Shown here piece after piece: positions 36,001-51,000 of a DNA stretch of 64,000 bases. Made by a program: the position numbers. Source of the stretch: a virus. Lineage: Duplodnaviria > Heunggongvirae > Uroviricota > Caudoviricetes. The stretch lies in the IMG/VR virus record IMGVR_UViG_2880412407_000011. One strand, written 5' to 3'. Each line of letters starts with the position of its first letter. Position 1 is the stretch's first letter.

Positions 36001-39000
36001 CCCGCACTGCGGGGAGGAGCAGTATCTTAAATTTGGCGACAAAGAGACGCCGTTTGGCCTCAAATGGACGCCGGATGACCCCTCCAGCGTGTTTTATCTC
36101 TGCGAGCATAATGCCTGCGTCATCCGCCAGCAGGAGCTGGACTTTACTGATGCCCGTTATATCTGCGAAAAGACCGGGATCTGGACCCGTGATGGCATTC
36201 TCTGGTTTTCGTCATCCGGTGAAGAGATTGAACCGCCTGACAGTGTGACCTTTCACATCTGGACGGCGTACAGCCCGTTCACCACCTGGGTGCAGATTGT
36301 CAAAGACTGGATGAAGACGAAAGGGGATACGGGAAAACGTAAAACCTTCGTGAACACCACGCTCGGTGAGACGTGGGAAGCGAAAATCGGCGAACGTCCG
36401 GATGCTGAAGTGATGGCAGAGCGGAAAGAGTATTATTCAGCGCCCGTTCCTGATCGTGTGGCTTACCTGACCGCCGGTATCGACTCCCAGCTGGACCGCT
36501 ACGAAATGCGCGTATGGGGATGGGGGCCGGGTGAGGAAAGCTGGCTGATTGACCGGCAGATTATTATGGGCCGCCACGACGATGAACAGACGCTGCTGCG
36601 TGTGGATGAGGCCATCAATAAAACCTATACCCGCCGGAATGGTGCAGAAATGTCGGTATCCCGTATCTGCTGGGATACTGGCGGGATTGACCCGACCATT
36701 GTGTATGAACGCTCGAAAAAACATGGGCTGTTCCGGGTGATCCCCATTAAAGGGGCATCCGTCTACGGAAAGCCGGTGGCCAGCATGCCACGTAAGCGAA
36801 ACAAAAACGGGGTTTACCTTACCGAAATCGGTACGGATACCGCGAAAGAGCAGATTTATAACCGCTTCACACTGACGCCGGAAGGGGATGAACCGCTTCC
36901 CGGTGCAGTTCACTTCCCGAATAACCCGGATATTTTTGATCTTACCGAAGCGCAGCAACTGACTGCTGAAGAGCAGGTCGAAAAATGGGTGGATGGCAGG
37001 AAAAAAATACTGTGGGACAGCAAAAAGCGACGCAATGAGGCGCTCGACTGCTTCGTTTATGCGCTGGCGGCGCTGCGCATCAGTATTTCCCGCTGGCAGC
37101 TGGATCTCAGTGCACTGCTGGCGAGCCTGCAGGAAGAGGATGGTGCAGCAACCAACAAGAAAACACTGGCAGAATACGCCCGTGCCTTATCCGGAGAGGA
37201 TGAATGACGCGACAGGAAGAACTTGCCGCTGCCCGTGCGGCACTGCATGACCTGATGACAGGAAAACGGGTGGCAACGGTACAGAAAGACGGACGGCGAG
37301 TGGAGTTTACGACCACTTCCGTGTCTGACCTGAAAAAATACATTGCTGAGCTGGAAGTGCAGACCGGCATGACACAGCGACGCAGGGGACCTGCAGGATT
37401 TTATGTATGAAAATGTCCACCATTCCCACCCTTCTGGGGCCGGACGGCATGACATCGCTGCGTGAATATGCCGGTTATCACGGCGGTGGCAGCGGATTTG
37501 GTGGGCAGTTGCGGGCGTGGAACCCACCGGGTGAAAGTGTGGATGCAGCCCTGCTGCCCAACTTTACCCGTGGCAATGCCCGCGCAGACGATCTGGTACG
37601 CAATAACGGCTATGCCGCCAACGCCATCCAGTTGCATCAGGATCATATCGTCGGGTCTTTTTTCCGACTCAGTCATCGCCCAAGCTGGCGCTATCTGGGC
37701 ATCGGGAGGAAGAAGCCCGTGCCTTTTCCCGCGAGGTTGAAGCGGCATGGAAAGAGTTTGCCGAAGATGACTGTTGCTGCATTGACGTTGAGCGAAAACG
37801 CACGTTTACCATGATGATTCGGGAAGGTGTGGCCATGCACGCCTTTAACGGTGAACTGTTCGTTCAGGCCACCTGGGATACCCGTCCCTCGCGACTGTTC
37901 CGGACACAGTTCCGGATGGTCAGCCCGAAGCGCATCAGCAACCCGAACAATACCGGCGACAGCCGGAACTGCCGTGCCGGTGTGCAGATTAATGACAGCG
38001 GTGCGGCGCTGGGATATTACGTCAGCGAGGACGGGTATCCTGGCTGGATGCCGCAGAAATGGACATGGATACCCCGCGAGTTACCCGGCGGGCGCGCCTC
38101 GTTCATTCATGTCTTTGAACCCGTGGAGGACGGGCAGACCCGCGGTGCAAATGTGTTTTACAGCGTGATGGAGCAGATGAAGATGCTCGACACGCTGCAG
38201 AACACGCAGCTGCAGAGCGCCATTGTGAAGGCGATGTATGCCGCCACCATTGAGAGTGAGCTGGATACGCAGTCAGCGATGGATTTTATTCTGGGCGCGA
38301 ACAGTCAGGAGCAGCGGGAAAGGCTGACCGGCTGGATTGGTGAAATTGCCGCGTATTACGCCGCAGCACCGGTCCGTCTGGGAGGCGCAAAAGTGCCGCA
38401 CCTGATGCCGGGGACTCACTGAACCTGCAGACGGCTCAGGACACGGATAACGGCTACTCCGTGTTTGAGCAGTCACTGCTGCGGTATATCGCTGCCGGGC
38501 TGGGTGTCTCGTATGAGCAGCTTTCCCGGAATTACGCCCAGATGAGCTACTCCACGGCACGGGCCAGTGCGAACGAGTCGTGGGCGTACTTTATGGGGCG
38601 GCGAAAATTCGTCGCATCCCGTCAGGCGAGCCAGATGTTTCTGTGCTGGCTGGAAGAGGCCATCGTTCGCCGCGTGGTGACGTTACTTCAAAAGCGCGCT
38701 TCAGCTTTCAGGAAGCCCGCAGTGCCTGGGGAACTGCGACTGGATAGGCTCCGGTCGTATGGCCATCGATGGTCTGAAAGAAGTTCAGGAAGCGGTGATG
38801 CTGATAGAAGCCGGACTGAGCACCTACGAGAAAGAGTGCGCGAAACGCGGTGACGACTATCAGGAAATTTTTGCCCAGCAGGTCCGTGAAACGATGGAGC
38901 GCCGCGCAGCTGGTCTTAAACCGCCCGCCTGGGCGGCTGCGGCATTTGAATCCGGGCTGCGACAATCAACAGAGGAGGAGAAGAGTGACAGCAGAGCTGC

Positions 39001-48000: not shown

Positions 48001-51000
48001 AGGTCAGTATGCTGCGTGTTGAGTTCAGCGCAGAGTTTAAGCAGGTGGTGAACTGATGCAGGATATTCACGAAGAAAGTCTGAACGAGTCGGTTAAATCA
48101 GAGCAGTCACCGCGGGTGGTACTCTGGGAAATCGACCTGACGGTACAGGGTGGTGAGCGGTATTTTTTCTGCAATGAGCTGAATGAAAAAGGGGAGGCGG
48201 TTACCTGGCAGGGGCGGCAATATCAGGCATACCCGATTGACGGCAGTGGCTTTGAGATGAACGGGAAGGGCAGCAGTGCCCGCCCGTCGCTGACGGTGTC
48301 GAATCTGTTCGGTCTGGTCACCGGAATGGCGGAGGACCTGCAGAGCCTGGTGGGGCCACGGTGGTCCGCCGCCGGGTGTATGCCCGTTTTCTGGATGCGG
48401 TGAATTTTGTGGCGGGCAATCCGGAAGCGGACCCGGAGCAGGAGCTGAGCGACCGCTGGGTGGTGGAGCAGATGTCAGAGCTGACGGCCATGACAGCCTC
48501 GTTTGTGCTGGCAACACCGACGGAGACGGACGGAGCGCTGTTTCCCGGTCGCATCATGCTGGCGAACACCTGTATGTGGGATTACCGGGGAGATGAATGC
48601 GGGTATAACGGTCCTGCGGTGGCGGATGAGTTCGATAAACCCACCACCGATATCCGTAAGGACAGATGCAGCAAGTGCATGCGCGGGTGTGAGATGCGCG
48701 GCATGGTGGCTAATTTTGGCGGTTTCCTTTCCATTAACAAACTTTCGCAGTAAATCCAATGACACAGACAGAATCAGCGATTCTGGCGCATGCCCGGCGG
48801 TGTGTGCCTGCGGAGTCGTGCGGCTTCGTGGTGAGAACGCCGGAGGGGGAGCGGTATATCCCTTGTGTGAATATCTCTGCAGAGCCGGAGGCGTATTTTC
48901 GTATTGCACCGGAAGACTGGCTGCGGGCAGAGATGCAGGGGGAGATTGTGGCACTGGTCCACAGTCATCCCGGTGGTCTGCCCTGGCTGAGCGAGGCCGA
49001 CCGGCGGCTGCAGATAAAAAGTGCACTGTCCTGGTGGCTGGTCTGCCGGGGGGAAATTCATAAATTCCGCTGTGTGCCACATCTGACAGGACGGCGCTTT
49101 GAGCACGGGGTGACGGACTGTTACACGCTGTTCCGGGATGCCTACCATCTGGCGGGAATTGATATGCCGGATTTTGAGCGTGAGGATGACTGGTGGCGCA
49201 ACGGTCAGAACCTTTACCTGGACAATATGGAGGCGACTGGTTTTTACAGGATTTCCCTGCCTTCCGCACAGCCTGGCGATATCCTGCTGTGCTGCTTTGG
49301 CGCATCGGTGGCCAATCATGCCGCCATATACTGCGGCAACGGTGAGCTGCTTCACCATCTGCCTGAACAACTGAGTAAACGGGAGAGGTATTCTGAAAAA
49401 TGGCAACGACGAACGCATTCTGTCTGGCGTCACCGCCACTGGCACGCATCTGCCTTCACGGGGATTTGCAACGATTTGGCCGCCGCCTCAGCCTGTACGT
49501 GAACACGGCAGCGGAAGCCATCCGTGCCCTGTCGCTGCAGATGCCGGGATTCCGCGGTCAGATGAACGAAGGCTGGTACCAGATACGTATTGCCGGTGAG
49601 GATACCGCGCCGGAGGCGGTGTATGCCCGTCTTCATGAACCGCTGAGCGGGAGGGCCGTGATTCATATTGTACCGCGGCTGGCAGGGGCCGGGGGAAATG
49701 GTGTTTTTCAGGTGGTGCTGGGGGCGGCAGCCATCGTGGGCTCTTTCTTCACTGCCGGGGCATCAATGGCGTTATGGGGTTCAGCCCTGGCAGCCGGTGG
49801 TTTTTCTGCCACCACGATGCTGTTTTCACTGGGGGCCAGCATGATTCTGGGTGGTGTGGCTCAGATGCTGGCCCCGAAGGCTAAAGTACCGGAGTACAAA
49901 AGCACGGATAACGGCAGACAGAACACGTACTTTTCCTCGCTGGATAACATGATTGCCCAGGGGAACCCGATGCCGGTGCCTTACGGTGAAATGCTGGTTG
50001 GCTCCCGGCGAATCTCCCAGGACATCAGTACCCGTGATGAAGGCGGTGGCGGAAAGGTCGTGGTTATCGGGCGGCAGGGGTAAAAAGAATAAAAAAATCC
50101 CGCAGAGTTGCGGGGACAGACAAAGATTAACGTTAAGGAGTTATTTTTGTTTCTGGTGCTCGGGCAAAAAAACATTAACGCAGAGAAATTATTAGCACCA
50201 CAGTCAGTTTGTGAAAATGTGAAGATATTCAGAAGTTTTATTCAGTCATGATACAGGCATCCTCCGGGATGCCTGTTGTTTTTGTGCGTAACAGTTATCA
50301 CAGTAAAGGGTGAGACAATGGGCAAAGGTGGCGGCAAGGCGCACACACCTCGTGAGGCGAAGGACAATCTCAAATCCACGCAGATGATGAGCGTGATTGA
50401 TGCCATCGGTGAGGGACCGGTGGAAGGCCCGGTGAAGGGGCTGCAGAGTATTCTGGTGAACAAAACCCCGCTGACGGACACGGACGGTAATCCTGTGATA
50501 CATGGTGTGACAGCGGTCTGGCGCGCCGGGGAGCAGGAGCAGACACCACCTGAAGGCTTTGAGTCCTCCGGAGCTGAAACCGCACTGGGCGTGGAAGTGA
50601 CGAAGGCAAAGCCGGTGACGCGCGCCATTACGTCCGCGAACATTGACCGCCTGCGGGTCACCTTCGGGGTGCAGTCACTGCTGGAGACCACCTCAAAGGG
50701 CGACCGTAATCCCTCTTCTGTCCGACTGCTGATTCAGTTGCAGCGTAACGGTAACTGGGTGACGGAAAAGGATGTCACCATTAACGGCAAGACCACCTCG
50801 CAGTTTCTGGCGTCGGTGATTCTGGATAATCTGCCTCCCCTTCCTTTTAACATCCGGATGGTCCGGGAGACGGCGGACAGCACCTCGGACCAGCTGCAGA
50901 ATAAGACGCTCTGGTCGTCATACACCGAAATCATCGATGTGAAACAGTGCTACCCGAACACGGCGATTGTGGGGCTGCAGGTGGATGCGGAGCAGTTTGG

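Follow-up and report, generated by a model that had tools for sequence, protein, structure and literature searches.

The SkewIT survey (PMC7717575) singled out Escherichia coli strain RM8352 among 934 Escherichia genomes, its SkewI being 0.275 compared with 0.87 as the mean of the genus. For an inversion of 2.38 Mb (2,583,081–4,963,263) the survey reported gaps of zero coverage at either end and no read in support of the inverted arrangement, and its authors judged this part of the assembly to be incorrect. At the level of single bases, the ARAMIS study (PMC8574707) showed that PacBio RS II assemblies of mid- and high-GC genomes carry single-base deletions, mainly in G/C homopolymers of 2–12 nt, that persist at more than 300x coverage and often occur several times in one gene, truncating the predicted proteins. 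Homopolymer-length errors also commonly survive short-read polishing in repeats where reads cannot be uniquely placed, as described with Polypolish (PMC8812927). Here we analyze a stretch of 64,000 nucleotides (the window; virus record IMGVR_UViG_2880412407_000011, Caudoviricetes) that holds a prophage with a lambda-like late operon and whose source is the O121:H19 strain RM8352, assembly CP028110. Five virion genes of this prophage, the portal gene B and genes C, U, H and L, are split by frameshifts. We conclude that the frameshifts are very probably residual consensus errors in the deposited assembly, not mutations of the bacterium, and that the virion (morphogenesis) genes of the prophage are almost certainly intact in the organism.

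In a listing of open reading frames (ORFs), the late operon at 37.4–48.8 kb appears as many same-strand pieces. We compared 37407–48753 by megablast with 5,426 complete E. coli genomes; RM8352 is not among the RefSeq complete genomes used (SkewIT had taken it from RefSeq in 2020). None of the 5,426 matches this segment at 100%, and the best matches are eight O121:H19 genomes with 99.6–99.9% identity. The segment is exactly 15 bp shorter in the window (11,347 bp) than in the references (11,362 bp). The references have the portal, S49 peptidase (C), U, H and L genes all annotated as intact, and the nanS-p coding sequence likewise, with WP_024026143.1 (533 amino acids, aa) as the product of B and WP_032212710.1 (439 aa) as that of C. 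Once the 15 missing bases are restored, the window becomes identical to the reference and the proteins of B, C, U, H and L are full-length at 533, 439, 131, 870 and 232 aa. A first-pass annotation of the window, made from the sequence alone, had described the five genes as split on the same strand and had proposed a comparison with orthologous prophages; that comparison bears the description out, with 15 single-base deletions in the window and all eight sister genomes intact at these genes. The record NZ_CP027317.1 (strain 2015C-3107, 3466247–3477607) measures 11,361 bp where the other references have 11,362 bp, which probably reflects a one-base difference in length specific to that assembly within the late-gene region.

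Base-by-base alignment with strain 2014C-3599 over 30,696–64,000 revealed 19 indels, every one a single-base deletion in the window inside a homopolymer of the reference. Alignment with strain 16-9255, used for the left part and for the sites at 28–31 kb, added the deletions at 28864 and 30253 and brought the total to 21 (Table 1). Each is a 1-bp change in a reference run of two to eight identical bases. Fifteen fall in the five virion genes and six fall beyond 37407–48753 or its five genes, so the span originally given for the damage is right for the former and too narrow as a limit, the full range being 28,864–50,165. Breaks that had been placed by eye in G-runs near 45410 and 48350 and in an A-run near 28865 were recovered at 45410, 48351 and 28864, and what had been noticed at a few sites extends to the whole set: when precisely aligned, 21 of 21 breaks lie in homopolymers. 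The genes listed at first sight as whole (A, W, D, E, FI, FII, Z, V, G/T, M, K, I and J), together with the insertion sequence (IS) copies, have no indel against the references. An additional deletion at 33524, apparent against 16-9255, was rejected because 16-9255 diverges there and the window aligns with 2014C-3599 without a gap.

Table 1. Features of the window and the single-base deletions that they contain (run lengths are given as reference to window)
Feature	Position	Strand	Deletions and remarks
Zone with all 21 deletions	28529–50401		part duplicated at >=99% identity in a second prophage of the same chromosome
Exact inverted repeat copy	33696–50401		17,150 bp; 17,133 bp in the window after 17 deletions
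Portal gene B	37407–39004	+	4 deletions: 37703 (G4 to 3), 38409 (G5 to 4), 38685 (C2 to 1), 38727 (G5 to 4)
Gene C (S49 peptidase / scaffold)	38985–40301	+	3 deletions: 39074 (T4 to 3), 39381 (G3 to 2), 39986 (G3 to 2)
Tail terminator gene U	43113–43507	+	1 deletion: 43200 (T5 to 4)
Tape measure gene H	45124–47730	+	6 deletions: 45410 (G7 to 6); 45844, 46179, 46247 and 46426 (each G5 to 4); 47296 (G4 to 3)
Minor tail gene L	48056–48753	+	1 deletion: 48351 (G5 to 4)
nanS-p (SASA-family esterase)	28403–30252	+	1 deletion: 28864 (A6 to 5)
Deletion at or directly past the nanS-p stop codon	30253		A7 to 6
Antirepressor gene	32109–32677	+	1 deletion: 32657 (A4 to 3), 20 nt before the stop
Intergenic deletion	33503		A5 to 4
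Intergenic deletion	34383		C4 to 3
Intergenic deletion	50165		A8 to 7, between I and J
Prophage region / dusA boundary	62498–62800		SkewIT end-point 4,963,263 maps here, ~195 bp inside the 5' end of dusA (~62.8 kb)

The spectrum of these changes is one-sided. Relative to the sister O121 genomes there are 21 deletions and no insertions, and no substitution separates the window from 2014C-3599 over 31,928–64,000. Of the deletions, 14 are in G/C runs, and G/C runs of at least 4 nt are shortened about five times as often as A/T runs of the same class (11 of 87 versus 5 of 174, P = 0.004). The zone 28,529–50,401 contains 20 runs of five or more Gs, of which 8 have lost a base (8 of 14 in its interior); none of the seven such runs beyond it has. 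In kind, the 21 deletions resemble the errors described with ARAMIS, being single-base, homopolymer-bound and G/C-biased. They differ from them in being confined to one copy of a long repeat instead of spread over the sampled genome, which indicates that the rest of the sampled genome was successfully corrected. Had the sequences truly diverged, substitutions and some insertions should be present too, in a pattern that ignores the limits of a repeat.

The first-pass annotation had left two origins side by side, homopolymer errors in the assembly and a prophage in decay. Decay would mean that one duplicated copy of the late region in RM8352 gained real slippage deletions that inactivated B, C, U, H and L. 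Homopolymers are genuine hot spots of slippage, and defective lambdoid prophages are frequent in E. coli that makes Shiga toxin (STEC). Two of the shortened alleles, G6 of H and G3 of the portal gene, occur elsewhere, and the window does hold a true frameshifted pseudogene, EspS, that is common to it and all references. Nevertheless, decay would need 21 independent indels with no substitution and no insertion since the split from strains with otherwise the same sequence over 64 kb, whereas real decay normally also brings substitutions, larger deletions and IS insertions in place of a spectrum made up only of −1 homopolymer changes. The indels are also limited to the repeat zone, with none in the 42 kb outside it; they are not shared with related strains, the set of breaks being found in none of the 5,426 complete genomes; and the published read mapping shows no coverage near the inversion end that we place at the window locus (PMC7717575). 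We regard decay as very unlikely, and of the two origins first proposed it is assembly error that the evidence supports.

The confinement of the deletions can be followed along the window. Relative to the O121 references there is no indel in the ~42 kb made up of 1–28,528 and 50,402–64,000, and the outermost deletions are those at 28,864 and 50,165. The first 19.3 kb are 100% identical to 16-9255 except for an additional IS copy, an IS3-family (IS629-like) element at 9560–10871 whose site is empty in 16-9255 and whose flanks are otherwise 100% identical. From 19.4 to 28.4 kb every base agrees with the O121 genomes (9,001 bp in each), the window is 4 bp shorter than these genomes from 28.5 to 33.7 kb, and no difference from 2014C-3599 is found past 50,165 up to 64,000. 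If the deletions were uniform over 64 kb, all 21 would fall within 28,529–50,401 with P ~1.6e-10. The same contrast appears when homopolymers are counted, with 16 of 261 runs of at least 4 nt shortened in the zone and none of the 219 found over the 13.6 kb past its right end (Fisher P = 5e-5). We rejected mismatch-repair deficiency as a cause, as it would act genome-wide and leave many transitions, and the window has neither substitutions nor indels outside the repeat.

Strain 16-9255 has one prophage at ydfJ (+ strand, ~0.99 Mb) and another on the dusA side (− strand, ~3.36 Mb), 2.36 Mb apart. The two have in common an exact inverted repeat of 17,150 bp, their longest exact block, which corresponds to ~33.7–50.4 kb of the window and has additional exact blocks of 0.6–1.5 kb next to it on the left. 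Of the 21 deletions, 17 lie within the exact repeat, and the duplicated left flank accounts for the remaining four. The left arm and flank of the window prophage (1–33.6 kb) are those of the ydfJ prophage, and its right arm (50.4–64 kb) is that of the dusA-side prophage, yet in each of the eight complete O121 genomes more than 2 Mb separates the ydfJ-side arm from the dusA-side arm. Judged by its arms, the window prophage is a hybrid of the two, joined within the common sequence that bears the deletions, and the alignments place the join, which must on this evidence lie in the 17,150-bp repeat or just to its left, at ~31,927–50,401. As a test of copy number, we also counted the places matched by deletion-bearing and deletion-free segments, and this was set aside as both gave 11–13 with no discrimination.

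The hybrid junction appears to correspond to one end of the inversion reported by SkewIT. We mapped the end-point 4,963,263 through the published pheU-island coordinates of both strains and the dusA coordinates of 16-9255, a procedure that assumes no indels in the ~100 kb between, and it falls at the dusA boundary of the window prophage (Table 1). The SkewIT report concerns the same strain and the same record as the window. It differs from the present case in reporting a structural error only, with no base-level errors or frameshifted phage genes, and in having its second end-point away from the reciprocal prophage.

A coincidence of this kind might also arise from one real event, in which error-prone, recombination-linked synthesis by DNA polymerase IV (Pol IV) during double-strand-break repair over the 17-kb repeat accompanied a true 2–3-Mb inversion between ydfJ and dusA. 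The −1 deletions in G runs match the spectrum of Pol IV and of stress-induced mutagenesis, and their location is that of the repeat by way of which the hybrid prophage arose. Inversions between the ydfJ and dusA prophages have moreover been reported among O121 strains (Nishida et al.). Such an event would have left roughly one deletion per kb, orders of magnitude above any reported break-associated mutagenesis, and it conflicts with the lack of supporting reads for the inversion and with the implausible GC-skew profile of the assembly (PMC7717575). Runs of A/T and a C2 run are shortened as well, and PacBio consensus errors typically bear the same signature. We consider a single real event exceedingly improbable; if it were true, a dense cluster of Pol IV-type −1 frameshifts would mark the tract of break-induced recombination between inverted prophage copies.

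Assembly error is also favored by the distribution of the individual alleles. In a collection of ~15 billion proteins, the 135-aa N-terminal portal fragment produced by the first deletion has a single GenBank accession, AWJ29726.1, which is the portal protein of RM8352. Its only other carrier is a 1.6-kb Logan contig with seven substitutions relative to the window and a different phage background; we rejected this contig as support for the RM8352 break and take it as an independent occurrence. The intact portal sequence is on at least 1,000 contigs, and the G3 allele of the portal gene is found in 2 of 3,185 complete-genome records. Fragments that need two of the window breaks (203, 130, 210 and 346 aa) are found nowhere else in the protein collection. 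Matches to C-terminal ORF fragments were rejected as a sign of common frameshifts, as those that can be judged are partial proteins on very short contigs (e.g. 362 and 999 bp). The intact H sequence has accession AWJ26741.1, in the same series as the RM8352 portal fragment, and the offset of 2,985 proteins between the two puts it near 1.9 Mb, the predicted site of the other repeat copy. Going by this accession series, the other copy of H in the RM8352 assembly appears to be clean.

One allele recurs. The H fragment that results from the loss of one G at 45404–45410 (G7 to G6) is on at least 25 contigs, mostly assemblies of megabase size with a further break in H downstream. In an alignment of ten G6-bearing H loci we found further single-G losses at G5 and G6 runs, including two sites that are also broken in the window, and other megabase-scale assemblies with CP027xxx accessions have lost one G at G5–G7 runs of H and Z. 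Of 647 complete-genome records, 30 have the G6 allele. Among the 12 G6 records listed, five have CP027xxx accessions and four are ‘RM’ strains of the US Department of Agriculture (USDA), two of which, RM8426 and RM10386 (CP028116 and CP028126), have accessions adjoining that of RM8352. A set of 77 STEC genomes from the Centers for Disease Control and Prevention (CDC), generated with PacBio, falls in the CP027xxx range, and from this range the listed CP027xxx records would belong to that set. Recurrence at the same runs fits a systematic error, and true slippage hot spots, particularly at G7, may also give it.

This leads to a mixed origin, in which most of the breaks are assembly errors and one or a few are real length polymorphisms. 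The main candidates are the longest tracts, G7 of H (45404–45410) and A8 at 50165; by length, only these two would fit a phase-variable (contingency) tract, which usually has seven or more bases. The other 19 sites are runs of 2–7 bases, 18 of them of six or fewer. Tracts of 7–8 bases are long enough for appreciable slippage, and the G6 records include short contigs as well as the complete genomes. On the other hand, many of the G6 records are PacBio-era assemblies from two laboratories, several of them with further G-run deletions in H, and the tract is G7 in either copy of H in every one of the eight sister O121 genomes. We find a mixed origin unlikely, though less so than decay of the whole late region.

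The concentration of breaks in a few genes had been called odd under either explanation, and it is accounted for by homopolymer content and clean repeat edges. When runs are weighted by their class-specific rate, 3.5 deletions are expected in H, 1.6 in I, 1.5 in A, 1.4 each in B and K, and 1.2 in C. H contains 6 of the 20 runs of five or more Gs in the zone, and this is why it is most often broken. For the whole late operon, the probability that five or fewer genes are affected is 0.026 in the homopolymer-weighted model versus 0.003 in a length-only model. The deficit lies in the genes at the repeat edges, Nu1, A, K and I, where 4.7 deletions are expected and none is observed (Poisson P = 0.009). 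In the repeat interior, from B to L, five or fewer affected genes have P = 0.19. Long reads anchored in the unique flanks would give a good consensus only near the ends of the repeat, which may have produced clean edges and an error-rich interior.

How such errors could have escaped correction is suggested by a later paper from the same laboratory, which cites the RM8352 announcement for library construction. It describes PacBio RS II sequencing, assembly with HGAP3 and a read N50 of 17–20 kb, with base calls validated by MiSeq reads in Geneious at a minimum coverage of 50 and a variant frequency of at least 0.8. A repeat of 17.15 kb is about as long as such reads, so that few of them would be uniquely placed inside it and PacBio homopolymer under-calls could have been kept. 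Short reads over an error would align better to the clean copy, which would leave the erroneous copy below the coverage threshold and uncorrected. The loss of coverage at errors would also yield local zero-coverage gaps like those in the SkewIT report, and the same repeat probably caused the wrong join. As in the Polypolish case, the error zone coincides with a repeat, here the 17.15-kb exact repeat and its duplicated flanks; unlike in that case, the short repeats of the window (IS600 and IS3-family copies, 1.2–1.3 kb) are error-free. What limits correction therefore seems to be that the repeat matches the long reads in length, and not short-read multi-mapping alone.

Several points weigh against assigning all breaks to the assembly. 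The platform and polishing of RM8352 itself (PacBio RS II with MiSeq validation) are taken over from the later paper of the laboratory. The portal G3 and H G6 alleles are also present in other data sets and could reflect real slippage hot spots, and the genes show a mild over-dispersion (P = 0.026) before the edge effect is allowed for. Nishida et al. list ydfJ–dusA prophage inversions among O121 strains and do not call them artefacts. The SkewIT text gives the zero-coverage gaps without exact positions, and its end-point 2,583,081 is not at the predicted reciprocal prophage junction near 1.9 Mb, so the rearrangement history must be more complex than one mis-join. In CP028110 this end-point adjoins, by published coordinates, a 13.6-kb island at ~2.57–2.58 Mb bordered by yhiA (the ‘TRI’ section). 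A simple reciprocal ydfJ/dusA exchange was rejected as the source of the end-point because it does not fit the island coordinates, which implies that RM8352 differs from 16-9255 by at least one further rearrangement.

Two described phage systems offer a likeness to the split genes. The defective lambdoid prophages of enterohaemorrhagic E. coli likewise have a lambda-like late operon with interrupted morphogenesis genes, and the window element does have real pseudogenes, EspS and an IS-interrupted tail fibre gene. The real prophage defects are common to related strains and come with IS insertions, larger deletions and substitutions, whereas the 21 deletions are private to one assembly. The EspS effector pseudogene (57479–58355), in which the window is identical to the references and which is annotated as frameshifted there, serves as an internal control for a real frameshift. 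The programmed −1 frameshift of lambda G/GT likewise changes frame on the same strand within the tail cluster. Here, by contrast, G (44281–44703) and T (44730–45143) are unchanged relative to the references, and none of the 21 breaks is located there. Programmed ribosomal frameshifting is not supported at any of the 15 sites, all of which are in continuous frame in the references, with no break conserved in relatives.

The comparisons also revealed features of O121 prophages apart from the deletions. At 27711–27771 and at 33510–33591 the window differs from 16-9255, and from it only, by six clustered substitutions each. Over 19.4–28.4 kb, which includes the first patch, the other O121 genomes match the window at 100.0%, and 2014C-3599 is an exact match at the second. 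Both resemble the result of gene conversion over short tracts between the prophages of 16-9255. At five loci, other O121 genomes have a prophage with a different head module, of HK97/ClpP type, and the same tail module, including an identical 870-aa tape measure, an arrangement that shows exchange of tail cassettes among co-resident prophages. The RM8352 genome itself has several further lambdoid prophages, which could provide or complement virion proteins.

CP028110 serves as a reference O121:H19 genome in comparative studies. Besides the structural mis-assembly, it would contain at least 21 base-level errors in this prophage, resulting in false pseudogenes in seven genes: the five virion genes, nanS-p and an antirepressor. 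For automated scans, the diagnostic of such an artefact is a set of changes made up only of −1 homopolymer deletions, with no substitutions, and confined to a long intragenomic repeat. Left in place, the false pseudogenes would bias calls of prophage intactness, pan-genome counts and inferences on inducibility.

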